Shown piece by piece: positions 11,195 through 36,404 of a DNA stretch of 64,000 nucleotides; within the stretch, counting starts at the first letter, position 1, and every line of letters begins with the position of its first letter. The position numbers and the translations under genes were made by a program. Source of the DNA: an uncultured Gemmatimonadales bacterium (GTDB lineage Bacteria > Gemmatimonadota > Gemmatimonadetes > Gemmatimonadales > GWC2-71-9); contig CAVZZO010000003.1 of assembly GCA_963779755.1 (NCBI GenBank), forward strand, positions 1,504,001-1,568,000, given 5' to 3'. The notes beneath the pieces were generated by a model, which worked only from the letters and a program-made list of their open reading frames with translations, made no database searches and was not told the DNA's origin.

Positions 11195-11628
11195 TCAATC
11201 GACAATCTCGCTCCACCGCCGCCTCGCAATGATACCTCCAATTGGGCCAAATGCGACCGAGAGTATCAGAATCGTAATTTGGCTATCAGGTGAAAAAGCA
11301 TCGCGACCGCTTGCCGCGATGGCAAAGCCTGTCCATATGGGAACTGCACATAGGAGCCCCAGTAAAGCTGCCCCCCACCACCAGCGTGCCAATGGCCGAA
11401 GCGCACCGAGTACCATCCCCGCACTTATCCCCCCCCCCAATACGCAAGGATTGTACTCCCTAGGGTGCTGTGATGAGTTTCGAAAGCCTGCGTACCGTTG
11501 AGAGCATAAATGCCCAGCGCTATTACGGAGTACAGCACGGCACCACAAATCCCTAGCCCGCCCCCCCAGAGAACGTTCTGGGTCAGCGTCTTGCCCCTAT
11601 ACTTCCGATCCTTTACTAGTGACGACAC
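11195..11628 (-). CDS. Putative membrane immunity protein for RHS-B, split at a G10 tract (11429-11438)
   Basis: ORFs 11425-11628 and 11195-11548 join into one multi-TM protein if the run is G11 or G8; overlaps the RHS-B stop. Confidence 0.7.
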
Positions 11629-14600
11629 GCGGCTACCGCCTCCATCACGGCGTCATAGGTGGCCAACCCAGGAACTAGGCTCCTAAGAAACCCCCCTACG
11701 GAGAACCCTCCCGCCAAGGATGGGGCCGCTGCGTCAAAGCCAATTGCGGTTGCCCCCAACGCCCCCCTCGATCCCAAATATGCAGAGGCTAAGCTACGGC
11801 CCCCGCGAATCAGGTTCCCGCGAGCGTACACCAAGTCCATCTTTGTACCCCATTCTGTAAGGCTCCTAGCAACGTACCCAGCTGCCCTCGCTCCTCTGAA
11901 AATCCCGGACAACCCCCCAGTGAAAAAGAACGAGCCGTCAATAACGCCAGTTCCGATTGCTATTAGAACAGCATCCCTACAAGCCATCTTGTCGCCTGGC
12001 TTGGGCGGACTGCCCGCGCCCGCCCCGCTCGTCGACACGATCGGGTTCCCATTGGGGTCCTCCCGCGGCGTGAACCCACCACACGTTGTCCACTGCCATT
12101 CGGTCCAAGAGCCTTGATCGCTGTTGCACGCTTGCGGCTCGGAGAAAGCACTCGGAAGATCATGATGTGCATAGCCCTCGATCTCCGGGAGGCAGACAAC
12201 GCCCTCGTCGCACTTGGGATCCATACCAAATGGATCCGACCCACTGATAGGATCATTGCCAGAGTACGCGTAGAGATTGAGCCCTCCCATTATCCCAATC
12301 GGATCTTCGGTCAGGAACCTCCCCAGCTCCGGGTCATAGTACCTCGCCCGCATATAATAGAGCCCGCTCTCGGGATCGTACTCCCGCCCCGCCATGCGGA
12401 ACCGGGTAACCACGCCGGTGTCCGGACTGGCGATCCGGCCCCAGGCATTGAGATCGTACTTCTTGAGCGGCGCCCCCGCACTGTCCCGCGCGATCCCGTG
12501 CACCGACCCGATTACCGGGTCGGTGAGCACGACCCCGCTCCAGCTGGCGTTCTTGATACTGAAGAGTCGGTCGCTGCCTGGCAAGTGGCCGTATTGGTTG
12601 GTGACGGCGAAGCTGTTGTTGAGGTCGAGCGCCACCTGGTCGCCGTCGTAGACGTACCACTGGTTGCCGCTCGCGGTGGTCTTGCGCACCCGGCGGCCGA
12701 AGGGGTCGTAGGCGAAACTGTCCACAAAGGCCCCCGGGCCCGTGAGCACCTGCTTCAACCGGCCCAGGGCGTCCCAGGTGTACTGTTGGCCGATATAGCA
12801 GTAGACGTAACCCGAGCACTTCGACACCATGTTCCCGTTGGCGTCATAGGTAAAGTACCAGCCGGCCGAGTAGGCCAGCCGATTGCCCGCCCCCACGTTC
12901 GCGACCAGCTCGCCCGCCACGAGGCGGTTGCCCGCTGAATCATAGACATAGGCCGGACCCGTCCAGCCCCACTCGTTGGTGCAGGTGGGGCCGCTCAGGT
13001 CACAGGCATTGGTCAACCGGCCCAGGCTGTCGTAGGTGAAGGCCCGCTTGAGCTCCCCATTGTACTGCTGGGTCTTGAGCCGGTTCAGGGAGTCATAGGT
13101 GACGGTGACGCCCAGCAGGTTGTTCAGGGCGGAATTGCTGTAGGCCTGGAGCGAATCGGCGTGATTCTTCGTGAACGTACGCGTCTCGGTCCACTGGCCG
13201 GTGCTTGGGGTTCCGGGCCCAAACGTGAGGGTGGTCGCCAGCCGTTCTTGATTATACGTGGGGCTCAGATGCCCGCCCGGAGCCGTCAAGCTTGTGAGGG
13301 TTCCATTGCTGCCGCTGTAACCCGCACTGACGGGGTAGTTGTTCCCCGGGTCCGACCGGGCCGTGATCCGGTTCTGGCTATCCCACGTGTAATTCCACTG
13401 GTAGGTGTGGCCGCTCATGGTCTGGATCGAAGTCGTGAGCCGGCCTGCGGCGTCGTACGCCAGGGAGTCGTAGGCCACGGCATTCTTCCCGACCAGCCAG
13501 CGGCCCGCCGGATCATAGCGGAAGGTATCGGCCGGAAAATCCGGGCCGGAGCGCGTGAGCAGTCGGCCGGCCACATCATAGGTCAGGGTGATCGTATCCC
13601 CGCGGCGCGTCTTCACGGTCCGCACGTTCCCGGCCACGTCGTACCAGGTGCTGTCGGCCTTGGTGGTGTCGCCCAGATCGTGCTGGGCCGTCAGCCAGCC
13701 CAGGGGGTTGTAGCGGAACTTGTAGACCTCATGTTTGGGATCGGTCACCCGGACCAGGTTGCCCAGCGAGTCGTAGCCGAAGCTGGTGGTGTACCCCCTG
13801 CCGTCCATCGAGGTCAGGGTCTGGTTCAGGACCCCGTAGGTCACCTTGCTCGTGCCCGATTGGGGAACGTGCGTGGTGTCCGCTCGCCCCAGCGCATCGT
13901 AGTGGTAGGTGATCCGGTTCCCCCGGGCATCCACCTGGGTGGCGACGTTCCCCCAGGTTCCTTCATAGAGTGTGCTGTCCCGGTGGGCAGAGTCGGCGTG
14001 GATGAAGACCGTGACCCGGCCTCGGGTATCCTCCAGGTAGCGGCCCCCGAAGGCCCCGGCGATCTGCACGCTGTCGAGTGAACCCGCCGGCCCGCCGGTG
14101 CCGCTGTGGTAGGTGTAGCTGACACCGGCCGGGCCGCCCGTGATGGTGGCGACGTCGCCCAGCGCCGTATAGGTGTAGTTCAGCGTGCGGTTGGTGGTCA
14201 GATCCTTGGCCTGGAGCAGGAGGTAGGGCGAATAGGCCGGTGGTTCGTTCCCGTTCGAGTAGCTGAACTGGCTCGCGTGGCCATTCGGTTCGGTCACATA
14301 GGTGGGCCGGGACAGGGTGTCCCGGGTGATGGTCGTGATTTTCCCGAAGACGTCCTTGATCCAGATGGGCGCTCCCAGCCGGTCCAGCCGGAAGGTGATG
14401 ACCGCGCCTTGGGGGTCGGTCGCGGTCGCCAGCGCGGAGTCGGGCACCTGGGCCGTCTTGGCGGTGGCTTCGCTCGTTCCGGTGGTGCCTGGCTGCCATA
14501 CCACGCGGTCCGCCGCCTTCAGGACCACCGTTGGCCGCCCATTGCCGCCGGTGTAGAGCGGAACACTCGGCGCCTTGAGACTGTCCACCCGCCCGAGAGC

Positions 14601-16028
14601 GTCGTAGGTGATATTGGTCGCGTGTCCTGCCCGGTCGGTGACCTGGGTGAGCTGGTTCGTGGACGTGTTATAGGCCAGGACCGTCGAGATATTGTCGGGG
14701 TCTTTCACATTCACCAGCCGGCCGCTGGTGATGGTATAGGTCGTCACCCGGTTGCCGGGATCCTTGACCGTGGCCAGCTTGCCCGAGGCGTAGGTCAGCG
14801 TATCCCGCTTCCCCATGGGGTCAGTGATCTTGACCAGCAGCGTATCGTTGGGCGCGGTCCCCCAGGTGAGCGTGGTGGTATTGCCGAAGCGATCCACTGC
14901 CTTGGACATCCGGCCGTTCGAGAGAAACTCCACATAGGAGCCGTCCAACGCCACACGCCGCAAATGCCCTCCGACAGTCGCCAATGTGGTGGTCACGCCC
15001 GCCGGCGGCGCGCCGTTCTTGTACACCAGCACGGAGCCGTCCCCTTCCACCACTACGACACCATCCGATTGGGAGAAGACCTGTTGTAACCCGGCCATGC
15101 CCACGCCCGCGCCGAACGCACTCTTGCCGCGGTCGTTGACCAGGACATAGCTCGGCACGGTATTGCTGATCGTGCTGTCCGTTCCGTAGTGCGCCGTGGC
15201 CACCACCAGGACATCGTACCCCCCGGTCGTGAGGCCATTGGTGCTGTCATCCAGGACCGCCTCCACGCGCACCGGCGTGGTGCCCTGAGCCATGTAATAG
15301 ACCGCCTGCTGGCCATTCAGCAGGGTCAGGAAGGCACCGGTAGACACCCGCTTGACCTGCAGGCTGTAGCTCGTGGGTGTGTGCCCCGCGGTCGCATTCA
15401 GGTCCATGGCGATCACGGCCTTCGGGTGGACCGTGGCGCTGTTGTAGACCAGGGATACGGTGCGAGGCTGGCCGAGGGAGAAGTACGGGACGGTGCTATG
15501 GGTCCAGACCATGTCGAAACAACTGGCGAGGCACTGACCGACGCTGCGATTCCCGGGACTATACGGGGCGAGCGAGATTACCGGGGCTCCCGGCGGGGCG
15601 ACCACCGGCACGGAAACCCACCCAGTATCCGAAGCCTCGCCGTCGGCATGCAGCGTGATCCGCCCCGTGCCGGCGGCTCCGACGTGGAAGTACGCTTTGA
15701 CCTTGGTATTCTGCGCGCCCGCTGCCAGGGATAGCGAGCTGGGCTGCACGCTATCACAGGTCGCCGGGGCGGTGCTGGCGCAGGAAAGCCCGTACGTGTC
15801 GTCGTTGATCCCGTTATTCCACACCGTGAAGAACTGAATGAACTCGGTAGGAGCGTACGGGTTCTTGGTGGAGGTCGTCCCCCAATCCGGGGTGACGACC
15901 ACACTGAAGTCGTTGCAGCCCTCCACACAAAGCGGCTGGGCTTGCCCGGATAGCGGTCGGGAGAACGTCAGGCAGGCGACGAGGACAGGAAGGAAGGGGA
16001 GCAGGGCGAGGAAGCGGCGAGCGGACAC
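11616..16028 (-). CDS. RHS-B: signal-peptide RHS toxin with Gly/Ala-rich hydrophobic CT
   Basis: GTG start at 16028 after ccggag; signal peptide, QPLCVEGC domain, YD repeats, RYYDPELGRFLTEDPIG...DPFG. Confidence 0.92.
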   Translation of the reverse strand: MSARRFLALLPFLPVLVACLTFSRPLSGQAQPLCVEGCNDFSVVVTPDWGTTSTKNPYAPTEFIQFFTVWNNGINDDTYGLSCASTAPATCDSVQPSSLSLAAGAQNTKVKAYFHVGAAGTGRITLHADGEASDTGWVSVPVVAPPGAPVISLAPYSPGNRSVGQCLASCFDMVWTHSTVPYFSLGQPRTVSLVYNSATVHPKAVIAMDLNATAGHTPTSYSLQVKRVSTGAFLTLLNGQQAVYYMAQGTTPVRVEAVLDDSTNGLTTGGYDVLVVATAHYGTDSTISNTVPSYVLVNDRGKSAFGAGVGMAGLQQVFSQSDGVVVVEGDGSVLVYKNGAPPAGVTTTLATVGGHLRRVALDGSYVEFLSNGRMSKAVDRFGNTTTLTWGTAPNDTLLVKITDPMGKRDTLTYASGKLATVKDPGNRVTTYTITSGRLVNVKDPDNISTVLAYNTSTNQLTQVTDRAGHATNITYDALGRVDSLKAPSVPLYTGGNGRPTVVLKAADRVVWQPGTTGTSEATAKTAQVPDSALATATDPQGAVITFRLDRLGAPIWIKDVFGKITTITRDTLSRPTYVTEPNGHASQFSYSNGNEPPAYSPYLLLQAKDLTTNRTLNYTYTALGDVATITGGPAGVSYTYHSGTGGPAGSLDSVQIAGAFGGRYLEDTRGRVTVFIHADSAHRDSTLYEGTWGNVATQVDARGNRITYHYDALGRADTTHVPQSGTSKVTYGVLNQTLTSMDGRGYTTSFGYDSLGNLVRVTDPKHEVYKFRYNPLGWLTAQHDLGDTTKADSTWYDVAGNVRTVKTRRGDTITLTYDVAGRLLTRSGPDFPADTFRYDPAGRWLVGKNAVAYDSLAYDAAGRLTTSIQTMSGHTYQWNYTWDSQNRITARSDPGNNYPVSAGYSGSNGTLTSLTAPGGHLSPTYNQERLATTLTFGPGTPSTGQWTETRTFTKNHADSLQAYSNSALNNLLGVTVTYDSLNRLKTQQYNGELKRAFTYDSLGRLTNACDLSGPTCTNEWGWTGPAYVYDSAGNRLVAGELVANVGAGNRLAYSAGWYFTYDANGNMVSKCSGYVYCYIGQQYTWDALGRLKQVLTGPGAFVDSFAYDPFGRRVRKTTASGNQWYVYDGDQVALDLNNSFAVTNQYGHLPGSDRLFSIKNASWSGVVLTDPVIGSVHGIARDSAGAPLKKYDLNAWGRIASPDTGVVTRFRMAGREYDPESGLYYMRARYYDPELGRFLTEDPIGIMGGLNLYAYSGNDPISGSDPFGMDPKCDEGVVCLPEIEGYAHHDLPSAFSEPQACNSDQGSWTEWQWTTCGGFTPREDPNGNPIVSTSGAGAGSPPKPGDKMACRDAVLIAIGTGVIDGSFFFTGGLSGIFRGARAAGYVARSLTEWGTKMDLVYARGNLIRGGRSLASAYLGSRGALGATAIGFDAAAPSLAGGFSVGGFLRSLVPGLATYDAVMEAVAACRH

Positions 16029-16061: not shown

Positions 16062-16078
16062 GGCAGATTACATGCCCT
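16062..16078 (-). promoter_or_regulatory. sigma54 -24/-12 promoter of RHS-B
   Basis: Minus strand aGGGCATGTAATCTGCc = GG-N10-GC, about 35 bp upstream of the GTG. Confidence 0.72.
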
Positions 16079-16145
16079 GCGGCTCCAGGATTCACCTCGT
16101 TATCCGGGAACAACTTAGGCGGCCGGCGCACCTTCCTTCCTCCCC

Positions 16146-16202
16146 AAATGTTCAGAAATGTTCAGCTTTGTTCGGAACATTTCCGAACATTTCTGAACAT
16201 TT
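16146..16202. promoter_or_regulatory. Putative enhancer (UAS) array B
   Basis: TGTTC(A/G)G x3 then inverted GAACA x3 at 10-bp period; contains the EBP-B stop codon. Confidence 0.7.
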
Positions 16203-17169
16203 CGTTCGCGTGCTTCGCCTCCCGCAGCGATAGCCCATGCGTCCGCAGGCGGGAGTAGAGGGTCGTGCGGCTGATCCCGAGTACCGCCATGATACGCTTG
16301 GCGTTCCAGCCATGGGCTGCACAGATCGCTACCAGTTGCGCGTCTACTGTCCCCACGCGACCAGGAACCCGCGGGTCCAGATCACGACACCCCATCTCGA
16401 TGGCTTCCGCGAGCCCGGCGCCCGTGATTTGTCCCCCACCCCCCAGCCACCCTGCCCGCTCCACCACATACCGCAGCTCGCGCACGTTCCCCGGCCAGGC
16501 GTAGCCCGCCAGCACGGACGCGACACCCTCGCCCAGGCTCCAGCCCTGCCGTCTCGCGAAGTGCTCCGCCAGCGGCAGCAGATCCTCCGTCCGTTCCCGG
16601 AGCGGCGGCAGCCGCACCAAGGCCCCGCAGATCCGGTGATAGAGATCCGCCCGGAACCGGCCAGCTTCGATCTCGCGGGTCAGCGGCCCCTGCGCCGCCG
16701 CCACGATCCGCAGATCCACCCGTCGCTTCCCGGTCTCGCCCAACCGCCGCACTTCCCCCTGCTCCAGCACCCGCAACAGCTTGGCCTGCGCCTCCAGCGC
16801 CAGGCTGGGCAGCTCATCCAGCAACAGGGTCCCGCCGTCGGAGGCCGCGATCAGGCCCTCGGCATCGTCCGCCCCGGTATAGGCGCCACGCCGGTGCCCG
16901 AACAGCTCCCCTTCCACCAGCTCGCGCGGCAGCGCCGCACAATTGAGGTCTACCAGGGGCCCACGCCGCCCGCTCCAGGCATGCATCGCCTGGGCGAAGA
17001 GCTCCTTCCCCGTCCCCGTCTCCCCCACGAGGAGAACCGGCAGACTGGTCGTCGCGAAGCGGAAGGCCAGATCGAGCGCGCGCAGGAAGGCAGGCGCTCG
17101 GCCGATCATTGCCGGCGCCGCGCCCGGTGCCCCCGGGCCGCTGATTTCCGGCGTGCGGCTAGCGGTCAT
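16162..17169 (-). CDS. EBP-B: sigma54 enhancer-binding protein without a sensor domain
   Basis: GETGTGKE, GAYTGA, LLLDE, WPGNVREL, Fis-type HTH LGISRTTLYSRL. Confidence 0.93.
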   Translation of the reverse strand: MTASRTPEISGPGAPGAAPAMIGRAPAFLRALDLAFRFATTSLPVLLVGETGTGKELFAQAMHAWSGRRGPLVDLNCAALPRELVEGELFGHRRGAYTGADDAEGLIAASDGGTLLLDELPSLALEAQAKLLRVLEQGEVRRLGETGKRRVDLRIVAAAQGPLTREIEAGRFRADLYHRICGALVRLPPLRERTEDLLPLAEHFARRQGWSLGEGVASVLAGYAWPGNVRELRYVVERAGWLGGGGQITGAGLAEAIEMGCRDLDPRVPGRVGTVDAQLVAICAAHGWNAKRIMAVLGISRTTLYSRLRTHGLSLREAKHANEMFRNVRKCSEQS

Positions 17170-18433
17170 CGCCCGCTCCCATGTCTCCGAGCCGCGGTTG
17201 GGTGACCTGATCGGCGTCCTCGTCCGTCTTCAGGATCCTGGGCGTGATGAAGAGATATAGCTCGGTCTGGCTCTTGCTCCGGCTGGCACTCCCGAAGAGG
17301 CCGCCCAGGATCGGGAGGTCCGAGAGCAGGGGCACCCCCGACTGGCTCTTGTCCCGCTGCTCGTCGGTGAGGCCTCCGATCACGATGGTCTGGCCGTCCC
17401 GCACCAGCACCTGGGTGGCGGCCTCCCGGGTCGAAATGATGGGCGCATCGAACTGGGTCTCGCTGGTGGCGGCATTGATCTCCTGCTGGATGACGAGGGA
17501 GACGTAGCCGTCCTGGTTGATGGTGGGGCGCACGGTGAGCTTGGTCCCCACATCCTTGTACTGCACCACCTGGTCCCGGCTCGGGGTGTCGGTCGGCAGC
17601 GAGCGGCTCACCTGCACGAAGGGCCGCTGGCTCCCCACCAGGAATCGGGCCTCGGTGTTGTTGGAGGCGAGGAGGACCGGACGAGAGATGATGTGCACAT
17701 CGCCGTGACTCTGGGCCATCCGGAGCGTGGCATCAATGTCCGCCTTGCCCAGGCCCATGAGCCGGACCACCAAGTCGCCCAGCCCGCCACCTGCGGTATT
17801 CGCGTCGATGCTGCCGCCGTCCAGCTTTTGCTTCGGCAGGTGCAGGTCGGCCCCCAGCGAGAAGCTCCGGTCGTGCCGGGCCTCGACAATCAGGACTTCG
17901 ATCAGGACCTGGAGCGGCCGGATGTCGAGCTGGTTCACTGCCTCCTCCAGGACCTTGTAATCCTCTGCGGAGGCGCGGATCAGGAGCGAGTTGGTCAGCT
18001 CGTCGGGCACGATGGTGACGGAGCCCGAGAGGGCGGACAGGCGGACAGGCGGGAAGGCGGGAGGGCGGGAGGTGCTGCCCGTGCCGGAGTTCCCTGCGGA
18101 GGCACTACGTTCCGCTGCAGTTCGTCGGAGAGCGTTCCGCTCGAAAGTCCGGAGCTGCCGCTGAACTCGCCCGACCCGCCGAAGAGCTGATTCACGGTGG
18201 CGGCGACGTCGGCGGCGCGGGCGTGCTTGAGCCGGATGACAAAGAGGCGGATGTCCTGGGGTGCGCCCGGTGTCCCCGGCCCCGGCGTGGGCGGCGGCGG
18301 AGCGGGGGGCTTGGGTTCGATCCGGAAATAGGCGGAGTCCTCGGTGAGCTGCAGCCCGTTGGTTTCGACCAGGTCGCGCAGCAGCGGCAACACGGCCGCC
18401 CGGGTGACGGGAGCCGGCGGCTCCAGGGTCACC
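17159..18433 (-). pseudogene. gspD: Duplicated secretin gene, 5'-truncated and frameshifted
   Basis: Paralog of 25973-27236; lacks the signal peptide and start; five octamer repeats at 18031-18070 versus four in the intact copy shift the frame. Confidence 0.88.
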
Positions 18434-18487
18434 GTTCCGAACCGACCCTTGCACCAGGAAATCGCCCGTGGATCTAGCCTGTTGGCG

Positions 18488-18686
18488 TCCGCAGATGGCG
18501 CAGATTGGTCCTGTTGACGTCCGGCTTTTTACGAAGATACGCCGATAGCATCGCTCGACGCCGGATTGGAACGTGCCCTCTTCCGACTTCTTGGATCAGC
18601 AACCTGGAGTGCCGGGTCGTAATCTGACGGCCACATGGGAGGCCCATCGGCGACTCCCCCCCGGGGCATCTGCGAGATCTGCGGAT
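18488..18686 (+). mobile_element. Decayed GxxExxY-type element
   Basis: Left arm tccgcagatggcgcagatt, right arm atctgcgagatctgcggat, internal remnant AGLERAL...LECR similar to the GxxExxY C-terminus (RLERALLLNFG..LEYRR). Confidence 0.55.
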
Positions 18687-18939
18687 GATCGGCGAGTTCA
18701 TCGAGCAACGGGGCCTGATCCAGCGGGCCGCGGCCGAGCTCAGGGGGGTGGACCCGTCCAAGGTCTCCCGTATCCTCCATGGGCGGCACGCGGACTACTC
18801 CACCGAGCGCCTGATCGGCTTTCTCCGCCCGCTGGGCCGCGATATTGACATCGTGATCCGGAGCCCGGGCGGCGCCGGGGACCGGGCCGGCTCCGCGTCG
18901 TCGCCTGATTCCACGCGCTGCACGCGCTTTCTTCTTTAG
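18685..18939 (+). pseudogene. 5'-truncated XRE/HigA-like antitoxin
   Basis: IEQRGLIQRAAAELRGVDPSKVSRILHG...YSTERLIGFLRPLGRDIDIVI; its ATG comes from the repeat arm. Confidence 0.65.
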
Positions 18940-19126
18940 CCGTCGGTTTCTTCCGACGATCTTGCCTGGCAAAGCCCCGCCGCCTCTCGATCCTCCGGCC
19001 CCGGCAAGCGAGCCCCTTCAATCCAGAGGCTGGTGCGCTCACAGCAGGGGCTCTGGAAAAGCTTGGCGATTCACACCGCGAAGAAGTAAAACGCCCCCCT
19101 TGGGGAGACCGGCGGCTAGCGAGGTC

Positions 19127-19858
19127 CTACGGCTTGTCTGGCGGACGGCCGGCAGCCGGGATCGAGTCGACGACTTCGAGACTTGGTGGTGCACCAGCCT
19201 GTAGCCTACACTCATACCTGGCCATACGTCCCGGCTCCGCTACCCACTCCTGGACGATCCACTGCCCCTTGCCCATGTGGGTTACCTGAGGGGCTCCGAC
19301 CCGCGTGCCCCACGGAGGCCCACGGGAAGAGAAGCCCATCTTACGCCAATCGTCGGCATTCTCGAACACGATGGGGCGCATGGAGGACGTACTTGCGTGC
19401 CCAACCGTCGCCGCTAGCTCGGTGCACGCCCTCTTGGCGGCATCCGGGCCGTCCGGTACCCAACCTGCGGACACTGCGGTGAAGTCCTCCGGTGTCCGCA
19501 GGATCAGCAGCTGGGTGTCACGCTGGGCGAGGATCACCACGGACTCCATGTGCGCGCTGCCGACCGGCCTGTATACGCTCCGATAATAGACCAAGCCAGG
19601 AACGACCCGTGATGACTCGGCCGTAGTCTCGAGCATATCCGGGTCGAGGCTGCTCACTGCTTCATGACGCGCGGTTGCGATGGCCGTAAGAGCCACGGAA
19701 TCGGTAGCTGAAAGTCGGCTCGCCTGGCCCATTCTCCCTGGCTCACGACTGCAAGCGACTAAGAAAGCGATCGCCATTAGGCGGCTGGCGGCTCTGGCGC
19801 ACGCTCGCCGGCCAACGAGCAGAGGCCGCACGTCTCGCGTGGATGCCATAGCGATCAT
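19127..19858 (-). CDS. Lipoprotein, putative immunity protein for RHS-C
   Basis: ATGA overlap with the RHS-C stop; lipobox AFLVAC. Confidence 0.65.
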   Translation of the reverse strand: MIAMASTRDVRPLLVGRRACARAASRLMAIAFLVACSREPGRMGQASRLSATDSVALTAIATARHEAVSSLDPDMLETTAESSRVVPGLVYYRSVYRPVGSAHMESVVILAQRDTQLLILRTPEDFTAVSAGWVPDGPDAAKRACTELAATVGHASTSSMRPIVFENADDWRKMGFSSRGPPWGTRVGAPQVTHMGKGQWIVQEWVAEPGRMARYECRLQAGAPPSLEVVDSIPAAGRPPDKP

Positions 19859-22800
19859 GGGCAGTACGTCGGCTCGGTAGCTCCGCTTCGGCATGCGTCG
19901 CTCCACTGTTTGTACCAACTGTTCGCCATCATCGCCGGGGCAAGGGCCGCGTCGAAGCGTCCCCAGACCGTGAGGGCACGACGCCATGCAAGCGCCTCTT
20001 CATCGGGCCTGTTGAAGAAGTGTGTTGCTTCATGCGTCAGTCGTGTTGCGTTGTCCACCTTACTCTGGCCTTCGAGGATGTAGATGGTTTTGCCGGTATT
20101 ACATCCCGTGGCGCCCTGGTCTTTGCATATTCGATCGAGCTTCGACTGAGAGAGGGGCTTCACGTCGGCCTTATTCGTTGCGACCAGAATGATCGTTGAG
20201 CGTCCCTCCTGCCCACCCTCGGACTTCAGAAGTCGGAACGCGTCACCTACCGTGTCTTTGGGACAGTCGTCCACGTTGGTGGTGTGCTTCCCTGTGTACG
20301 GACATAGCCCAAACGGGTCACTGAAGTTGATGGGATCGCCATTGGCGAGGCCATAGAGATTAAACCCACCCGCCAGGCCGATGGGGTCTTCCTGCGTGAA
20401 CCGCCCTGTTGCCGGATCGACAGAGCGATTTCGCCTGTAGAGCGTGCCGGCCCCATCCTCCTTGCCTTGAATCAGCGTTCCAAACCATCCATTGGGAGTC
20501 GGCGAGACGATATTAGGACCTGACCACAGGGCTTCTTTGGTGAGCCCGGTGGCAAAGGCAAGGCCACGCCATTGAACCTCCACACAATGAGAGCCGTCGA
20601 CGCACGTCTCCACCCCACCGTCGCCAAAAGTGCCGAGATCCGCCTCACCACGCCAGTTCCACAGCGGGAATACCTCCACCGGCGGCCAAGAGAATTGTCC
20701 CTGGTTCGTTCGCCGCAACAGGTTGAGTCGCGTAATTCCAATAGGCTGGTCTAGCGCACCCGCGTAGGTGTAGGCAGTCTGCCCGAATAACGGCCCAGGG
20801 TCGGCCCAGAGACCGCGATAGTCTAGTCCAGCCCACGGCGCGGCGGGACCGGTATCAGTCTCCAGATAGACCCCGTTATCATCTGCGGGCCCTATCTCTT
20901 CTGAAGCGTATGGCCTCTGGATTTCCCAAAGCTCCTGATTACCGTCCCACACTGTCCTACGGATCAAGCCCATTTGACAATCCGAGAATGCGAGGCTGTC
21001 ACCCCCCAGCCAACAGCTTCGCCTGCTCATGACAAGCACACGCCGGCCCAAGGCATCATAGCGATACTCGTCAAAGACATCTTTCCACGCTGGCACCCTC
21101 ATGTCGCCTTCCGCATGGCGCCACTCGGCCACACGAAGACGATCGTCTGCGCTATACCATGACGCCCGCTCATCGAAGAGATTGGCGCTGCCCCCATAAT
21201 AGAAGACGGTGTTACCGGCCGAGTCGTAGATAGCGTCGTGGTGTCCGCCGGCGTCCCACATTGACGTCAATCTGCCAGTCCCCGCTTGATAAAAACTAGA
21301 ACTAGTCGACCCTTGGGAGAAGGTGTTCTCGTAGTTGATGTTGCCATGAACCGATGAGTACCCGGCGTAGGCATTGCCCAACGGATCGTACGTGAAGCTC
21401 TGGCTGGCTCCATCCCCGCCGATATACACGTACAACACCGAATCGCTGAGGTTCTGGGGTCTCTCATAAGTCAGTGACGTCAACTGACCTAATCCCGAGT
21501 ATGTGGCGGTCACGGTATCCTTCCAACCGTGGCTGTTCTTGGCGGAGGACACACGAGTCAGATCAGCCCATGCCAGTTGAGCCAGACGGAGGTAGCTGTC
21601 CGGATCTTTGTAGGGAGACAGGCTCCCGTTGGCGACCTGGTCAAGAGTCATGCGGCCCAACGAATCGTACACCATCGAATCCACGATCTGTCCTGGTAAG
21701 CCCTTTCGAACTAGTTGGCCACGGGTATCGTATCCGAAGGTGACCGCATTGCCGAGTAGGGCCGTAACCTGGTTCAAGTCTCCAGTCGTATCGCTATACA
21801 CGTACGATACGCTGTCGCGCATACCTGTTCCGACGGCGAGTTGCGACGGATGGTGAATCGACGCCAGCCGTCCGTTGACATCGTAGGTGTGGCGAAGAAC
21901 ATAGAGATGTCCAAATGTACCGCTACTATAATTCCGAATCCAGAGAGAATCCCTGGCCAGCTGGCCGTTAATGAAGTAGGTGCGGTGGATCCTCGCGTCT
22001 CCATTGTCCGCTTTCAAGAGCGAGCCGTCAGGTGCGTAGGCAAACACAGCGGTGTCGGCGAAGATCTTGAGCCCGCTGCCGTTGTTGGGGAACCAGGGGT
22101 ATGGGCGTCCTTGGAGGCTGTCAGGATAATTGTCGTACAGTAGATCTAGCGTATTGATGTTTCCCGGCGTCGTCCGCGCGGCGTAGGACACCTCCGGCAC
22201 AATTCGCTTCACCAGACGGTTCAGCCGGTCATAGGTCATCCGAACAATGTGGCCGGTTCGTGCCTTGGCACTGTCCACATTCCCCGAAGGACCATACCAA
22301 CTGGTGTCGCGAATCCCGTCCGGTGCGATTCTGACGATCGACCGATTTGCGGCGTCGAAGACCCATTGAGTCGTCAGAGGGCCGAGGCTATCGTGGTCCG
22401 GTGACTGGACCAGCTGGCTTTGCGTCAGGTTGCCCTCATTGTCATAGGCATTATAGGTAGTCAAGCGCAAGGCTTCCGCCCCGCCGTGTGCAGGCGCCCA
22501 CGACGAGGTTAGGATGGTTCTGTCTGCGGCGTCATACGCCACGGAGTCGGTGCGAACTTGCCCAGCTCCAATCGCCGTCTGAAGAAAGATGAGCTTCCCG
22601 TTCGCATCGCTCTGATACCACGTCGGGTAGTAGTTGCTGCTCGCCACGTAGCTCGTGTTCCCCTGACTGTCATACCCGACCGTCGTAACCGCACCGATCG
22701 GCGGGGTAATTGTGCTGAGGAGGTACGCTCCGTTCCCAGAACTATTGTAGCCGAAGGTAGTCCGATTGATCGTGCCTCGGGCATCTTGCACCCACAACCG

Positions 22801-24822
22801 GTTCCCATTCGCCGCGTCAACCCCCAATTGCGTGACCTGCCCATTCGGCTGAACGACCTGCGTCAACTGATCCCAGGTCTGGTTCCAGGTGTAACGAGTC
22901 GTCGGATTGAGGCCGTTGGCATATGGGTTGGAATCTGAGACGGTGGCGAGGTTCCCGCGCAGGTCGTAGGTGGCACCAGTGACGAAACCGCCAGGTCCCT
23001 GGACCCGTGTTGGAAGCTCGGGCCAAGTCGCATTGGTCCTGGCGATGGAGGTCAAACGTCCGTAGGGGTCGCGAATCTGACTAACCGCCCCAAGGCTGTC
23101 TGTCCAGAAATGGATAACATCCGCGCTATCGGTGCGCGGGCCATCGTAGATGGTGTAAGTGCTCTCCGGAGCGGTGAGCCCAGACCCGCATGACCAAGCT
23201 CGCACCTCGGCTGGGCAGAAGGTTTGCGCGATCGTGTGAGCCCCTGCAACGGGAAGCGAGTCTCCCACCAATCTCATCCCCACGCCAAGCTTGTACCAAT
23301 GGGTATTGCCCCGCCGGTCGGTGCGCCTGGTGATCGTGCCCGGATGTGCGACGCTGTCGTAGCCGAATTGGACGCTGGCGGCAATCCCTGGATCGGTAAT
23401 AGATGTGATCCTGGCCCCCCCTGTGACTGCCGTCCCGATAACCCTGGTTACACGGCCGAGGCCCGTGACGTCTGGGGCATCAATCGAGCTGAGGGTCCCG
23501 TTCGGCCCAGCGTACTGGAACGTGTAGGTTCGGTTAGAGGGCGAGGGTGGCAAGGTGATGCTGAGGAGCCGGCTAGCACCGTCCGGAGCAAAGACAGTGG
23601 CATACCCAAGGCGATTCACCGTTTGGATATGGAAGCCGCTGCTATTGAATACCACTTTCACGCCGGCTTTCAAGTGCCGGGTATAGGTGCCGCCGCTGTA
23701 CGAGAGGCTGTCACGTCCATCGAATGCCCGGGCGACATACCAGGTGGTCCCAGTACAGCAGTTTGTCTTTACATAACGTCGTGAACTCCCATCCCCACCG
23801 ATCCAGAGGATGGAACCGTCACTGAGAAATTGGAGTTGTTCGAACCCTGCCAGCCACCATCCTGCACCGAAGTAGCTCCCCAGGCGATTGAGGATCACAA
23901 CACTGCCCGTATCGGTCCGGATCGCGATGTAGCCCGTCCCCGTCACATACTTGTCCAGTTCCAGTTGGAAGGCATACAGCCCAGTCGACAGGTCGCTGGC
24001 GGAGAAGTTAGTCATCACGCGCCGCGTCGCTGCTTGGCTAGGGGATCCCCACTGGGTCCCGGCCCAGGCCCGCCGGTCCCGCTGGATAAAAGACCCACCA
24101 ATCTTGAGCCGTGCGATGGCGACAATGGAGTCTGGCCGGTCGTTAGCGGCCAAGGCAAGATCGGCGTTCAGGGAAGGAAACGGATAGGCACTCTGAACGT
24201 TGTAGAGGAGGGTTGGTGTCCGAACCTTGTTGAGTGTTCGGGTCGATGGCAGCGGATGCACGATCCGAAGGTCACCACATTCATAGGCCGCATCGGAACC
24301 CGCCGCAATGGTCAGGCAGAGATCGCGTTCCACCAAGGGCCCAGTCGGTGTGACGGGAGTGGGTTTGACGGTGTACCAGCCCTGATTCGAGGCATGGCCG
24401 GTGGCAGTCAGGTACACGTTGCCATCTACGGTGGCGCCCACATGGTAGGTCACAGTCACCGTAATGCTGCTACCGCCGCCACAGCCAAAGCACAACGGCG
24501 CGAGCGGACCGCCTGGATCAAGCGTGGCGGAGGTAGGGCTCACCGACACACAGCTTACGCCAAGCGTTCGGGAGCAGGAGAACGTATAGGTGTCCGTGTA
24601 GTCCCCAGTATTCACGACCGTGAACGACGCCGTATGGTTGGCGTTGGGGGATACGGTGAGCGTTCCCCCGTGCGGGGTGACGGACACCGAATAGTTCAGG
24701 CAGCCGCTGACGCACAGCGGGCTAATCGGCTGCTGAGCAAGCCCTAATGAAGGGGAGAGAACGGCTGTAACCAACACCCCCGCAACGGCCAAGAAAGAAT
24801 GGACCAGACGGCGACCAGCCAC
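19855..24822 (-). CDS. RHS-C: signal-peptide RHS toxin with HExxH (metallopeptidase-like) CT
   Basis: Signal peptide, SPLCVSGC domain, YD repeats, DPATGRFTQEDPIG...DPFGL, CT motif LTHEATH..EE. Confidence 0.92.
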   Translation of the reverse strand: MAGRRLVHSFLAVAGVLVTAVLSPSLGLAQQPISPLCVSGCLNYSVSVTPHGGTLTVSPNANHTASFTVVNTGDYTDTYTFSCSRTLGVSCVSVSPTSATLDPGGPLAPLCFGCGGGSSITVTVTYHVGATVDGNVYLTATGHASNQGWYTVKPTPVTPTGPLVERDLCLTIAAGSDAAYECGDLRIVHPLPSTRTLNKVRTPTLLYNVQSAYPFPSLNADLALAANDRPDSIVAIARLKIGGSFIQRDRRAWAGTQWGSPSQAATRRVMTNFSASDLSTGLYAFQLELDKYVTGTGYIAIRTDTGSVVILNRLGSYFGAGWWLAGFEQLQFLSDGSILWIGGDGSSRRYVKTNCCTGTTWYVARAFDGRDSLSYSGGTYTRHLKAGVKVVFNSSGFHIQTVNRLGYATVFAPDGASRLLSITLPPSPSNRTYTFQYAGPNGTLSSIDAPDVTGLGRVTRVIGTAVTGGARITSITDPGIAASVQFGYDSVAHPGTITRRTDRRGNTHWYKLGVGMRLVGDSLPVAGAHTIAQTFCPAEVRAWSCGSGLTAPESTYTIYDGPRTDSADVIHFWTDSLGAVSQIRDPYGRLTSIARTNATWPELPTRVQGPGGFVTGATYDLRGNLATVSDSNPYANGLNPTTRYTWNQTWDQLTQVVQPNGQVTQLGVDAANGNRLWVQDARGTINRTTFGYNSSGNGAYLLSTITPPIGAVTTVGYDSQGNTSYVASSNYYPTWYQSDANGKLIFLQTAIGAGQVRTDSVAYDAADRTILTSSWAPAHGGAEALRLTTYNAYDNEGNLTQSQLVQSPDHDSLGPLTTQWVFDAANRSIVRIAPDGIRDTSWYGPSGNVDSAKARTGHIVRMTYDRLNRLVKRIVPEVSYAARTTPGNINTLDLLYDNYPDSLQGRPYPWFPNNGSGLKIFADTAVFAYAPDGSLLKADNGDARIHRTYFINGQLARDSLWIRNYSSGTFGHLYVLRHTYDVNGRLASIHHPSQLAVGTGMRDSVSYVYSDTTGDLNQVTALLGNAVTFGYDTRGQLVRKGLPGQIVDSMVYDSLGRMTLDQVANGSLSPYKDPDSYLRLAQLAWADLTRVSSAKNSHGWKDTVTATYSGLGQLTSLTYERPQNLSDSVLYVYIGGDGASQSFTYDPLGNAYAGYSSVHGNINYENTFSQGSTSSSFYQAGTGRLTSMWDAGGHHDAIYDSAGNTVFYYGGSANLFDERASWYSADDRLRVAEWRHAEGDMRVPAWKDVFDEYRYDALGRRVLVMSRRSCWLGGDSLAFSDCQMGLIRRTVWDGNQELWEIQRPYASEEIGPADDNGVYLETDTGPAAPWAGLDYRGLWADPGPLFGQTAYTYAGALDQPIGITRLNLLRRTNQGQFSWPPVEVFPLWNWRGEADLGTFGDGGVETCVDGSHCVEVQWRGLAFATGLTKEALWSGPNIVSPTPNGWFGTLIQGKEDGAGTLYRRNRSVDPATGRFTQEDPIGLAGGFNLYGLANGDPINFSDPFGLCPYTGKHTTNVDDCPKDTVGDAFRLLKSEGGQEGRSTIILVATNKADVKPLSQSKLDRICKDQGATGCNTGKTIYILEGQSKVDNATRLTHEATHFFNRPDEEALAWRRALTVWGRFDAALAPAMMANSWYKQWSDACRSGATEPTYCP

Positions 24823-24855
24823 GGCAAGCTCCGGTGAGGTTTGCCTGCCCCTCTA

Positions 24856-24872
24856 AGCAGGCCGCGTGCCGT
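24856..24872 (-). promoter_or_regulatory. sigma54 -24/-12 promoter of RHS-C
   Basis: Minus strand acGGCACGCGGCCTGCt = GG-N10-GC. Confidence 0.78.
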
Positions 24873-24938
24873 TCAGGTTTCCGCAGCAATCTCGTTCTGG
24901 ATCATGGAGTTAGCGCACACGGCACCGTCCTGTCAGTA

Positions 24939-24990
24939 GAGAATTTCTCAGAATTTCTCAGAACCTCTGAGAATTTCTCAGAATTTCTCA
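24939..24990. promoter_or_regulatory. Putative enhancer (UAS) array C
   Basis: GAATTTCTCA at 24941, 24951, 24971 and 24981, with palindrome TGAGAATTTCTCA; last box contains the EBP-C stop. Confidence 0.7.
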
Positions 24991-25983
24991 TGGAACCCGA
25001 GCATCGGCGGGAGCTTTGCTCCAGGAATCTCGCCGGACATCGCGCAAACGAATGCGATGATCTGTCAAGCGACGGTACAGGGTCGCTTGGCTGATCCCCA
25101 GCGCAGCCGCGATAGACACGCGCTTGCCTCGGTGCTTACGACACACCGCCAGCAGTCGGTTTCGTTCCACGAGCGCCGTTGGAATCATCCCAGCAACCTC
25201 GTGGCCGACAGCGATTGCCTCCGCGAGATGCGGGCCATCAAGGGACCCGCTACCTCCCAGCCACCCCGCCCGCTCCGCCACATACCGCAGTTCCCGCACG
25301 TTCCCCGGCCAGGGATAGCCGGCCAGGACCGGCAGCACATCCTCGCCCAGGCTCCACCCCTGCCGTCCCGCAAAGTGCTCCGCCAGCGGCAGCAGATCCT
25401 CCGTCCGTTCCCGGAGCGGCGGCAGCCGCACCAAGGCCCCGCAGATCCGGTGATAGAGATCCGCCCGGAACCGGCCGGCTTCGATCTCGCAGGTCAGCGG
25501 CCCCTGCGCCGCCGCCACGATCCGCAGATCCACCCGCCGCTTCCCGGTCTCGCCCAGCCGCCGCACTTCCCCCTGCTCCAGCACCCGCAGCAGCTTGGCC
25601 TGCGCTTCCAGGCTCAGACTCGCTAACTCGTCCAGCAACAGGGTCCCGCCGTCGGAGGCCGCGATCAGGCCTTCGGCGTCGTCCGCTCCGGTATAGGCGC
25701 CACGCCGGCGCCCGAACAGTTCGCCCTCCACCAGCTCGCGCGGCAGCGCCGCACAATTCAGATCTACCAGCTTCCCCGGGCGCCCGCTCCAGGCATGGAT
25801 GGCCTGGGCCACGAGCTCCTTGCCGGTCCCCGTCTCCCCCACCAGCAGAATGGGCAGACCGGTGGTCGCGCAGCGCTGGGCCAGATCCAGCGCACGCACG
25901 AAGGCGGGCGCCCGGCCGATCATCTCCGGCACCCGGCGCGATGCGCCCGGGCCGCTGAACGCCGGCCGGCGGCTAGCGGTCAT
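24988..25983 (-). CDS. EBP-C: sigma54 enhancer-binding protein without a sensor domain; last gene of the T2SS operon
   Basis: GETGTGKE, GAYTGA, WPGNVREL, HTH LGISQATLYRRL; start overlaps the gspD end. Confidence 0.93.
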   Translation of the reverse strand: MTASRRPAFSGPGASRRVPEMIGRAPAFVRALDLAQRCATTGLPILLVGETGTGKELVAQAIHAWSGRPGKLVDLNCAALPRELVEGELFGRRRGAYTGADDAEGLIAASDGGTLLLDELASLSLEAQAKLLRVLEQGEVRRLGETGKRRVDLRIVAAAQGPLTCEIEAGRFRADLYHRICGALVRLPPLRERTEDLLPLAEHFAGRQGWSLGEDVLPVLAGYPWPGNVRELRYVAERAGWLGGSGSLDGPHLAEAIAVGHEVAGMIPTALVERNRLLAVCRKHRGKRVSIAAALGISQATLYRRLTDHRIRLRDVRRDSWSKAPADARVP

Positions 25984-27604
25984 CGCCCGCACCCATGTTC
26001 CCGAGGCGTGGTCGGGTGACCTGATCGGCGTCCTCGTCCGTCTTCAGGATCCGGGGCGTGATGAAGAGGTAGAGCTCGGTCTGGCTCCGGGTCCGGCTGG
26101 CACTCCCAAAGAGGCCGCCCAGGATCGGGAGGTCCGAGAGCAGGGGAATCCCCGATTGGCTCTTGTCCCGCTGCTCGTCGGTGAGGCCGCCGATCACGAT
26201 GGTCTGGCCGTCGCGCACCAGCACCTGGGTCGCGGCCTCCCGGGTGGAGATGATGGGCGCGTCGAACTGGGTCTCACTGGTGGCCGCGTTGATTTCCTGC
26301 TGAATCGTGAGGGAGACATAGCCGTCCTGATTGATGGTGGGCCGCACGGAAAGCTTGGTCCCGACGTCCTTGTACTGCACGACCTGGTCGCGCGATGGCG
26401 TATCGGTGGGCAGGGAGCGGCTCACCTGCACGAAGGGCCGCTGGCTGCCGACCAGGAAGTGCGCCTCGGTGTTGTTGGAGGCGAGGAGGACCGGCCGCGA
26501 GAGGATATGGACATCCCCATGGCTCTGGGCCAGCCGGAGGGTCGCGTCGATGTCCGCCTTGCCCAGCCCCATGAGCCGGACCACCAGATCGCCCAGCCCC
26601 CCGCCCACGGTACTCGCGTCGATACTGCCGCCATCCAGCTTCTGCCTCGGCAGACTGAGATCCGCGCCCAGGGAGAAGCTCCGGTCGTGCCGGGCCTCGA
26701 CGATGAGGACCTCGATCAGGACCTGGAGCGGGCGGATGTCGAGCTGATTGACTGCCTCCTCCAGCACCGTGTAATCCTCCTGCGAGGCCCGGATGAGCAG
26801 CGAGTTGGTCCGCTCGTCGGGCACGATAGTGACGGAACCCGAGAGGGCGGACGGGCGGGAAGGCGGGAGGGCGGGAGGTGCTGCCTGACCCGGAGTTCCC
26901 TGGGGCGGAACGACGTTCCGGCGGAGTTCGTCCGAGAGGGTCCCATTGGAGAGCCCAGTACTGCCGCTGAACTCGCCCGAGCCGCCGAAGAGCTGATTCA
27001 CCGTGGCGGCGACGTCGGCGGCGCGGGCGTGCTTGAGCCGGATGACGAAGAGCCGAATGTCCTGGGGTGCGCCCGGTGTCCCCGGCCCCGGCGTGGCCGG
27101 CGGAGCGGGCGGCTTGGGTTCGATCCGGAAATAGGCGGAGTCCTCGGTGAGCTGCAGCCCGTTGGTTTCGACCAGGCCGCGCAGCAGCGGCAACACGGCC
27201 GCTCGGGGGACCGCCCCCGGCGGCTCCAGGGTCACCCGGGTACCCGGCACGTTGGTGGTGAGGACGGTCTTGGGGAGATAGCGCCCCAGGCCCTGGATGG
27301 CCGCGCGGAGATCGGTATCCACCAAGTGGATCACCAGGCTGTCGTGGGTCTCGCGGATGGCGGCGGTGCTTGAGTCCTGGGCCAGTACCGGAGGCGCGAA
27401 GAGCACGAGCATCGCCGTCATTGCGAGCCCGCGCAGCGGGCGAAGTAATCGGGGTCGGTGCGCACCCCACCCGACTGCTTCGGTCGCTTCGCTCCCTCGC
27501 AATGAGACGCACGGGAGGACCCTCCCTCGCAATGACAGCGGGAGTGTACCGCCGTACCGCCGTACCGCCGTACCGCCCGGCGTCCTGCCGTCCTCCGTCA
27601 CCAT
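25973..27604 (-). CDS. gspD: Type II secretion secretin (short form)
   Basis: QLDIRPLQVLIEVLIVE, YKDVGTKLSVRPTIN, VRDGQTIVIGGL, SGIPLLSDLPILGGLFG, TELYLFITPRI; ATG 27604 after a GAGGGAG RBS. Confidence 0.93.
   Translation of the reverse strand: MVTEDGRTPGGTAVRRYGGTLPLSLRGRVLPCVSLRGSEATEAVGWGAHRPRLLRPLRGLAMTAMLVLFAPPVLAQDSSTAAIRETHDSLVIHLVDTDLRAAIQGLGRYLPKTVLTTNVPGTRVTLEPPGAVPRAAVLPLLRGLVETNGLQLTEDSAYFRIEPKPPAPPATPGPGTPGAPQDIRLFVIRLKHARAADVAATVNQLFGGSGEFSGSTGLSNGTLSDELRRNVVPPQGTPGQAAPPALPPSRPSALSGSVTIVPDERTNSLLIRASQEDYTVLEEAVNQLDIRPLQVLIEVLIVEARHDRSFSLGADLSLPRQKLDGGSIDASTVGGGLGDLVVRLMGLGKADIDATLRLAQSHGDVHILSRPVLLASNNTEAHFLVGSQRPFVQVSRSLPTDTPSRDQVVQYKDVGTKLSVRPTINQDGYVSLTIQQEINAATSETQFDAPIISTREAATQVLVRDGQTIVIGGLTDEQRDKSQSGIPLLSDLPILGGLFGSASRTRSQTELYLFITPRILKTDEDADQVTRPRLGNMGAGDDR
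27417..27577. repeat. 90-bp GTCATTGCGAG palindromic element plus GTACCGCC octamers within the gspD leader
   Basis: gtcattgcgag...ctcgcaatgag at 27417-27506, extra half-site to 27536, octamers 27546-27577. Confidence 0.85.
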
Positions 27605-35116: not shown

Positions 35117-35133
35117 GGCACACTACATACCAG
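35117..35133 (-). promoter_or_regulatory. sigma54 -24/-12 promoter of the T2SS operon
   Basis: Minus strand cTGGTATGTAGTGTGCc = GG-N10-GC, about 33 bp upstream of the gspE ATG. Confidence 0.72.
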
Positions 35134-36336: not shown

Positions 36337-36404
36337 GTCGAAAACCTGCCCATCTTCTCCACCCAACTCTTGGAGCGGCGGGCAGTTGGCACGCGAGGAC
36401 GGAA

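Follow-up and report, generated by a model that had tools for sequence, protein, structure and literature searches.

Why does each of three activator genes in one bacterial locus run at its 3' end into a different array of short repeats, and what do these arrays control? The question is raised by a stretch of 64,000 nucleotides (nt) from an uncultured Gemmatimonadales bacterium (contig CAVZZO010000003.1, positions 1,504,001 to 1,568,000), hereafter called the window, which carries genes for three sigma-54 enhancer-binding proteins (EBP-B, EBP-C and EBP-D), a type II secretion-like gsp operon and three Rhs toxin genes. Sequence comparison leads us to regard it as probably a Rhs toxin locus that is linked to a type II secretion system (T2SS) and governed by sigma-54 activators that lack a sensory domain and act in a cascade. 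Activators and arrays appear to be cognate activator-enhancer pairs travelling with toxin cassettes; judged by comparison of genomes, this would be a new version of the known sigma-54 enhancer control.

The genome of the window comprises 4.23 Mb in four contigs with 68.5% GC. It has a single rpoN gene (one PF04552 match, 215.6 bits) and 13 genes with a PF00158 domain, three of them in the window. On the minus strand, from about 36.2 to 11.6 kb, the order is EBP-D, the gsp operon, EBP-C, Rhs-C, an open reading frame (ORF) of 286 amino acids (aa), a secretin remnant, EBP-B and Rhs-B. Rhs-D lies on the plus strand, divergent from EBP-D. The activators, each with an AAA+ and a helix-turn-helix (HTH) domain, their arrays, the promoters and an element recalling binding sites of integration host factor (IHF) are as follows.

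16162..17169, minus strand: EBP-B, 335 aa, intact
24988..25992, minus strand: EBP-C, 331-334 aa, its start overlapping the secretin stop
35248..36171, minus strand: EBP-D, about 307 aa, AAA+ and HTH, its start taken as the first ATG after the upstream array
16146-16203, minus strand: EBP-B array, five AAATGTTC boxes, three forward and two inverted, at 10-bp spacing
24940-24990, minus strand: EBP-C array, five TGAGAAATTC boxes (one degenerate, one an inverted core), the first TGA being the EBP-C stop
35202-35250, minus strand: EBP-D array, three TGAYACA boxes at 21-bp spacing, the first containing the EBP-D stop
36287-36337, plus strand: second EBP-D array (TGACACAC), two GTGACACAC boxes at 21-bp spacing and a degenerate TGAGACAG, facing Rhs-D
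16062..16077, minus strand: predicted Rhs-B promoter of sigma-54 type, GGGCATGTAATCTGCC, 49 nt before GTG 16028
24856..24871, minus strand: predicted Rhs-C promoter of sigma-54 type, CGGCACGCGGCCTGCT, 49 nt before the Rhs-C GTG
35117..35132, minus strand: predicted gspE promoter of sigma-54 type, TGGTATGTAGTGTGCC, 48 nt before the gspE ATG at 35084
36406..36421, plus strand: predicted Rhs-D promoter of sigma-54 type, CGGCACGGTGCCTGCC, 50 nt before the Rhs-D start
16108..16117, minus strand: TAAGTTGTTC element, conserved in the family, 40 nt upstream of the promoter and IHF-like by position

The three proteins consist of a sigma-54 interaction AAA+ domain (PF00158; E-values 4e-54, 2e-53 and 1e-39 for EBP-B, EBP-C and EBP-D), which begins near residue 21, followed by a Fis-type HTH (HTH_8), and they have no N-terminal sensory domain. 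The Walker A and B motifs GETGTGKE and LLLDEL are present in the alignment. HTH_8 scores lie above the cut-off of 22 bits for EBP-C (23.5) and EBP-D (28.4; 1.3e-06) and just under it for EBP-B (20.2), which is nevertheless aligned throughout. None of the NCBIfam equivalogs reaches its cut-off for any of the three proteins, and their scores against the PspF equivalog TIGR02974 (224, 216.5 and 207.2 bits for EBP-B, EBP-C and EBP-D) stay under its threshold of 443.55. The single rpoN gene and the predicted -24/-12 promoters before the target genes are as expected for sigma-54 activators. Homologues with a source name come from Gemmatimonadota metagenome-assembled genomes.

A preliminary description of this DNA had placed three different arrays after the three genes, about 70 bp upstream of a GG-N10-GC promoter. 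Both statements are borne out: at B, C and D, and also at Rhs-D, 70-71 bp separate the GG from the nearer end of the array. The description had further drawn a cassette of HTH, enhancer, promoter and toxin around all three activators, which fits B and C, whereas the downstream target of EBP-D is gspE of the secretion operon. In the EBP-B array the first three boxes are coding and give the protein the tail EMFRNVRKCSEQS, with the stop in the fourth unit. The whole genome has a single cluster of AAATGTTC, a single one of AGAAATTC and only two of TGAYACA, which flank EBP-D and each face a sigma-54 promoter. Since the box cluster of an activator is found nowhere else in the genome, each activator would have one private target. 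The fixed promoter distance, the genome-wide uniqueness and the presence of the EBP-D box at both flanking promoters support the arrays as predicted enhancers of the adjacent activator.

We collected related loci from other genomes. A first search covered 401 genomes drawn from the phylum and gave matches at E 1e-68 or better in 15 of them (the genome of the window, G000, included), all in one family (f1). A second, over 401 genomes of that family, gave 33 with matches, including the unpublished G562 and G630, whose loci, like that of G014, were left out of the reading; two genus searches added five more loci. Among the 38 fetched loci, L172 was dropped and L146 kept outside the array counts, and the final set comprises 39 EBP 3' ends, including the three of the window. 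The host genus is represented in the sample by G000 only. The module gspE…secretin-EBP-array-IHF-like site-promoter-Rhs was found in 32 other genomes of the same family. Of 33 loci scored for gene order, 23 have the secretin gene directly upstream of the EBP gene, and 21 have an Rhs gene as the next one downstream in the same orientation. The 12 loci that lack such an Rhs gene include five with less than 500 nt after the EBP gene and one artefact. At L172 (G504:C463) the contig end after a partial EBP gene resembles a sequencing adapter followed by poly-A, which we take to be an assembly artefact. At L146 (G513:C102, 7914-14040) the EBP frame is open into the Rhs gene, giving a frame of 2047 aa; this locus lacks the array and promoter of L153, a locus of the same genus whose EBP is 90% identical, and the intergenic region is absent.

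By manual classification, 30 of the 39 loci carry an array. About 15 box types were distinguished: GTCTCA at ten loci, TGAGAA at four, AATCCCA, CGCAACC and GTCGCA at two each, and ten singletons, among them those of B and D in the window. An 8-mer with at least four copies in 225 nt was found at 10/39 EBP 3' ends, compared with 2.5% of genome windows (binomial 3e-8), and one with at least three copies at 17/39, compared with 11.9% (binomial 8e-7), kin not being independent in either test. The maximum 6-mer count, tried as a repeat statistic, was dropped because 12.4% of genome windows reach 5, and 7- and 8-mers were used instead.

In 17 loci, among them B and C, the predicted promoter and the start codon are 48-51 nt apart, and by our reading gspE (48 nt) and Rhs-D (50 nt) fit the same spacing. 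Because this distance is so constant, the Rhs-B start, previously put at ATG 16061, was moved to GTG 16028; by the same constancy, the weaker B and D promoters are supported by their position. A TAAGTCGTTG-like element is present at 16/39 loci (0.0023 expected per 450 nt). Element and promoter could both be located at 13 loci, and at 11 of these the element is 39-41 nt upstream of the promoter. Its position, and its likeness to the IHF consensus, suggest an IHF-like bending site.

The secretion and toxin genes of the window are the following.

25973..35084, minus strand: type II secretion-like operon with gspE, gspG, gspF, pseudopilins, a PilN/GspL-like gene, a GspM-like gene and a 737-aa secretin, assigned by Pfam matches
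11616..16028, minus strand: Rhs-B toxin gene, PF05593 5.5e-45, start revised to GTG 16028
19855..24822, minus strand: Rhs-C toxin gene, 1655 aa, PF05593 4.7e-16
36456..41045, plus strand: Rhs-D toxin gene, 1529 aa with RHS repeats, PF05593 2.3e-26

GspE, GspF, GspG and secretin of a T2SS are all represented in the operon (T2SSE 1e-131, T2SSF 1.5e-41, T2SSG 7e-37, Secretin 3e-47); the GspM-like gene is a weak match under the Pfam cut-off. A 1390-aa protein has a colicin E5-like end, the variable C-terminal toxin of an Rhs polymorphic toxin locus. Gene linkage and signal-peptide-like N-termini suggest that the Rhs proteins are exported by the linked T2SS-like system. The start of EBP-C overlaps the secretin stop, making it the last gene of the gsp operon.

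In eight genomes with long contigs (L180-L187), the region upstream of gspE has by our reading its own sigma-54 type promoter and mostly its own array of another box type, such as CTGACCA five times in G343, AACTGTGCA three times in G071 and GCACAAGTA three times in G076. A gene like that of EBP-D adjoins the gspE region in four of the eight, and no activator gene is adjacent in the other four. Autoregulation of the gsp operon by its terminal EBP was considered and rejected, its box being absent from the 330 nt before gspE in four of the six genomes whose terminal EBP could be given a box type; G076 has a single copy there, and in G071 the only match is to an unspecific 5-nt core, of which the locus has 50 copies in 8.7 kb. 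This absence and the presence of other arrays before gspE point to a cascade, in which a master activator would switch on the secretion machine and the terminal activator, and the latter the toxin.

In the window, EBP-D would bind the TGAYACA boxes on both of its flanks and turn on the gsp operon and Rhs-D. EBP-C, encoded at the end of the operon, would be produced along with the secretion machine, bind its five boxes about 95 bp upstream of the -24 element and, with the DNA bent at the TAAGTCGTTG-like site, open the Rhs-C promoter. EBP-B would act likewise on Rhs-B through the AAATGTTC boxes. The B cassette (secretin remnant, EBP-B, array, promoter and Rhs-B) would be an older or alternative one, displaced by a cassette that recombined through the conserved secretin and AAA+ sequences.

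Recognition helix and box across the family

If each activator reads the array at its own 3' end, the recognition helix and the box should change together, as the preliminary description had proposed, and we compared them across the homologues. At least three GTCTCA boxes were found at 6/7 loci whose helix begins with SRATLY and at 2/32 loci with other helices (Fisher 5.7e-5, uncorrected for kinship). A His at the first helix position goes with boxes containing CGC in 5/5 loci, compared with 0/25 for the rest, a post hoc observation. Both residues meet within genus g13, where L158 has SRATLYRRL with GTCTCAC and L162 has HRATLYRRL with GTCGCAC. On the AAA+ tree, box class changes 21 times (minimum 15, shuffled mean 26.1), and it differs within the starred sister pairs B/C and L148/L149. 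HTH and box type change together in close AAA+ relatives, namely B/C and the two copies of G124.

We further looked for the same link outside the family. The pattern LG[VI]SRATLY, taken from a narrow C-terminal alignment, was scanned over metagenome contigs and gave 80 loci (L189-L268), 77 of them distinct. They encode mostly response-regulator EBPs with frames of about 470-590 aa and a helix continuing …RKLKRYNI (LGISRATLYRKLKRYNI). GTCTCA/TGAGAC occurs at these loci at 7.66 per kb between -20 and +200 of the stop, compared with 0.26 per kb elsewhere, and 52/77 have at least two such boxes. The control was a set of 77 loci from a whole-protein pattern scan (GxTGTGKE, WPGNVREL) that had given 80 generic EBPs; none of the 77 has SRATLY, and at least two boxes were found in 0/77. 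Because the response-regulator family is largely one lineage, the 52 loci count as one or few independent cases. In this response-regulator family, TGAGAC…TGAGAC boxes stand directly after the stop, followed by what looks by eye like a sigma-54 promoter; at three loci inspected, an ORF of 116-117 aa without an NCBIfam match comes next.

Several observations weigh against the reading of the arrays as dedicated enhancers of cognate activators. The contact loop for sigma-54, GAFTGA in most homologues, is GAYTGA in EBP-B and EBP-C (it is GSFTGA in EBP-D). The B and D promoters match 8/12 consensus positions, a level that chance reaches 0.49 times per 340 nt, and in genus g13 (L162, L175-L178) the -12 element is TTGT, not TTGC, with spacing and flanks otherwise conserved. 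No array was recognized by manual classification at 9/39 loci (two of which have only unclassified tandem repeats), several of them also without a detectable promoter; the box classes were curated by hand, and the background of the repeat statistic is G000 alone. The correlation between the whole 22-residue HTH and box class is weak (Mantel r 0.18, p 0.026; partial Mantel given AAA+ identity r 0.157, p 0.044), and replacing the classes by shared 6-mers gives r 0.13 (p 0.04; partial p 0.10). SRTTLY goes with three different boxes (EBP-B, L142, L176), and the four TGAGAA loci each depart from SRATLYRR in a different way. Independent pairs on starred branches number only two or three; all differing pairs go in the expected direction, with a sign test p of 0.5.

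Read from these alignments, the covariation code appears to be real at some positions and not simple, and its strongest support is the SRATLY-GTCTCA link outside the family. The proposed covariation thus stands for this link in two EBP families, for B/C and for G124; for the HTH as a whole it is weak, and the independent pairs are too few to carry it.

Proposed movement of the toxin cassettes

The preliminary description had called EBP-B and EBP-C near-identical through the AAA+ domain. The similarity is there, the wording is slightly generous, and the shared block is larger, as it includes the 3' end of the secretin gene.

16438..18433, minus strand: duplicated block, 88.8% identical to 25252-27236 over 2001 nt (blastn), its end near 16440 being a recombination junction
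17159..18433, minus strand: secretin remnant, lacking the 5' part of the gene and split between two frames (aa 318-447 and 430-737 of the complete secretin)

The block spans EBP codons 1 to about 244 and 1.27 kb of the 3' part of the secretin gene, and breaks off about 90 codons before the EBP stop. In 30-nt windows, B/C identity is mostly 0.7-1.0 (0.93-1.00 between about 16800 and 16530), drops to 0.57 in the window starting at 16437 and is 0.40-0.67 thereafter. The junction is sharp, with no gradient, and lies just after the AAA+ domain; between the two cassettes, no DNA similarity resumes in the array, the promoter or the Rhs gene. At the protein level, EBP-B and EBP-C are 91% identical in the AAA+ domain and 55% in the HTH. 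Over codons 1-243, dS is 0.28 and dN 0.069, and the resulting dN/dS of 0.25 indicates that both copies were kept. A run of an 8-bp repeat (GGCGGACA-like) lies within the secretin gene (18029-18070, corresponding to 26843-26878), and the frame change of the remnant is near there.

With the junction behind the AAA+ domain, the DNA-binding domain would move jointly with enhancer, promoter and toxin; with the exchange homology in the secretin gene and the AAA+ domain, these parts would stay together. A second example is found in G602, where the first Rhs gene is followed by another cassette, in which an EBP gene without its first ~100 residues precedes boxes belonging to the same class, a promoter reading GGCACG…TGC and a further Rhs gene; the junction is here inside the AAA+ domain. 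By analogy with Rhs loci and those of contact-dependent inhibition (CDI), the B cassette and the second cassette of G602 seem to carry the marks of displaced modules. The two copies of G124 depart from this pattern. They differ only in a patch of about 140 bp, which covers the helix end and the array and in which the box types differ. Identity is 74% on the upstream side of this patch and 88.6% in the 800 nt beyond it that hold the promoter and the Rhs start. The size of the exchanged unit is therefore not fixed. The earlier claim that recombination in the AAA+ region swaps specificity, enhancer and toxin as one unit agrees with the junctions of B/C and G602, and does not cover G124, where only about 140 bp differ.

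The small patch of G124 would also be compatible with co-divergence in place or with short tracts of conversion, and the alternative to be weighed most seriously is that an EBP-Rhs duplication was followed by fast co-divergence of HTH and boxes against cross-talk between the paralogues, with no foreign import. The G124 copies, alignable on both sides of their patch, are what such a history would leave, the purifying selection on both window copies agrees with it, and by our reading the box types resemble variants of one NTNNCA skeleton. What divergence in place does not account for is the abrupt fall of B/C identity near 16440 without recovery downstream, the marks of displacement in the truncated, frame-broken secretin gene of the B cassette and the 5'-truncated EBP gene of G602, and the recurrence of one box class in separate AAA+ lineages (at least three changes for GTCTCA on starred branches). 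We consider it an unlikely explanation of the locus and retain the exchange of cassettes through the secretin and AAA+ sequences.

Function of the arrays and position of the stop codon

The arrays could instead act at the end of the upstream operon as terminators or insulators, or bind some other protein. Folding lends this idea some substance: the RNA of the B array is predicted to form a 20-bp hairpin of -31.5 kcal/mol (z -7.1), which adds to the points against an enhancer, that of the C array reaches -25.2 (z -3.6), and many arrays are composite palindromes of the forms +++-- and +++---. The arrays of EBP-D, however, have no significant fold (z -1.3 and +1.1). The B and C hairpins are followed by UUU only or by nothing, not by the U-tract of an intrinsic terminator, and the upstream array of EBP-D lies in a divergent promoter region, where a terminator would make no sense. 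Moreover, the arrays hold their distance to the promoter rather than to the stop, and the SRATLY-GTCTCA link recurs in two EBP families, with at least two boxes in 0/77 controls. A role as terminator, insulator or foreign binding site thus looks improbable, and the arrays are best read as predicted enhancers.

The relation of the stop codon to the array was another point of the preliminary description, in which the TGA stop belonged to a box. This is so for all three EBPs of the window, whose stops lie inside a repeat unit (16164-16162, 24990-24988 and 35250-35248), and is one of three outcomes among the 30 arrays of the family: 12 contain the stop (which overlaps a box in 11 of them), 11 are coding over their whole length, and seven begin 3-34 nt past the stop. 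By our arithmetic, the centre of the array is about 60-97 nt before the GG, while the stop varies in place, up to about 34 nt ahead of the array and up to about 47 nt past the last box; array position follows the promoter, and stop position floats. At L144 and L164, the stop is the TAA of a conserved TAAGT element, and at L178 it lies within the promoter itself. We calculated that a random frame meets a stop about once per 48 codons at 68.5% GC, and boxes bearing TGA at 10-bp spacing offer one in all three frames; with 9-bp spacing, at L151, the frame is open through all six boxes. Tight gene packing, stop-poor GC-rich DNA and TGA-bearing boxes are thus enough to end an activator frame inside its array without design, and the stop within a box is incidental, composition and packing being its best explanation. 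That the stop in the box has a function, for instance by coupling translation or read-through of the activator to enhancer occupancy, draws on the three window genes and the 11 of 30 overlaps and is very improbable given the other outcomes among the 30 arrays, the stops in quite different elements and the open frame of L151.

Related systems and other features of the window

NtrC at glnAp2, NifA at nifH, PspF at pspA and XylR at Pu act from upstream activating sequences, with a bend by IHF, on a -24/-12 promoter. The locus resembles these classical cases in its AAA+ activators with a C-terminal Fis-type HTH, in sites about 80-150 bp upstream of GG-N10-GC and in a conserved element that lies between the two, at the usual place of the IHF bend. 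It differs in that the classical one or two dyads are replaced by three to six short boxes at 8-11 bp (or 21 bp), often three forward and two or three inverted, in that the array overlaps the 3' end of the activator's own gene, in the apparently single, private promoter and in the ~15 box types within one family. PspF and HrpR/HrpS are sigma-54 activators without a sensory domain, and HrpR/HrpS stand at the top of a cascade that controls a secretion system together with its effectors. The three EBPs have the same two domains only, and the proposed cascade for a secretion system recalls that of HrpR/HrpS; unlike PspF itself, they fall under the curated PspF cut-off. As the last gene of the secretion operon, EBP-C may be controlled by expression alone.

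Orphan or displaced toxin modules and tandem cassettes are known from Rhs/CDI loci. As there, the downstream cassette retains a piece of conserved upstream sequence, and orphan Rhs pieces are present in the window, with C-terminal pieces at 9696-10682, 44160-44471 and 2-145. One of these is 93% identical to Rhs-C residues 1416-1519 and stands beside a Mutator-family transposase (42852-44057). Unlike in Rhs/CDI loci, the exchange homology is the secretin gene and the AAA+ domain of the activator, not the Rhs core, so that a displaced cassette retains a complete regulator, enhancer and promoter.

Export of a large Rhs toxin through a T2SS has a parallel in Bcn-A of Xanthomonas perforans, an Rhs-family bacteriocin that requires the T2SS secretin XpsD (PMC7259588); for the window, such export is suggested by linkage. 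Bcn-A uses the general Xps system, and the excerpt of that report at hand mentions no sigma-54 control, whereas the T2SS-like operon of the window is physically linked to its toxin genes and would be under the same regulators. The soil response-regulator EBPs share with the window family the start of the recognition helix and the GTCTCA/TGAGAC boxes directly after the stop. They differ from it in their longer frames, which match response-regulator EBP models over their full length and no named family at cut-off, in having two or three boxes rather than five or six, and in the gene downstream, the 116-117 aa ORF of the three inspected loci. Among the papers listed by a literature search, none had a title or abstract opening that describes sigma-54 activators associated with Rhs/T2SS cassettes.

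The locus suggests that Rhs toxins of a little-studied soil phylum have a T2SS-like export route of their own, and the design would delay the toxins until the secretion machine is made. The logic of polymorphic-toxin cassettes would be extended from toxin and immunity to regulator, enhancer, promoter and toxin. Natural activator/enhancer pairs of differing specificity on a near-constant AAA+ scaffold would also be useful for working out the recognition rules of Fis-type HTHs and for building orthogonal sigma-54 switches. We put forward more tentatively, as a possibility that we ourselves find rather doubtful, that the family is a natural library of about 15 orthogonal pairs, including a residue code at the helix start, docking by one hexamer and a private activator per toxin cassette. 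A few residues at the start of the recognition helix would then set specificity, Ser/Gly reading GTCTCA and His reading GTCGCA or GTTGCG, and L158 and L162, from one genus, differ by a single residue and a single base. The six HTHs of one hexamer would dock on the five or six boxes, which follow each other at about one helical turn and typically comprise three in forward and two or three in inverted orientation. A newly arrived toxin would be expressed at once, only after the secretion machine and without cross-talk.

The 286-aa ORF between Rhs-C and the secretin remnant (19127-19987) has no Pfam match. The last 12 kb contain many short intergenic tandem repeats of 7-bp units (52679-52776, 54100-54253, 55648-55678, 56121-56139, 56750-56785, 57718-57749, 58448-58474 and 63238-63320). 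Their units include TTCCCGT (5.9 copies), GGGAAAC (3.9), CCCTTTC (4.3), AGCGGTG (3.9) and CCGCTCA (4.3), and they are unlike the EBP arrays. A 344-bp unit is tandemly repeated 2.2 times with 92% matches, and a 186-nt repeat family has copies at three places in the window; together, the two account for positions 107-849, 1081-1266, 2283-2468 and 49858-50043. At 50125-50183 there is a perfect 21-bp tandem repeat, ATCTGCGCAATCTGTGGTCAA, in 2.8 copies.

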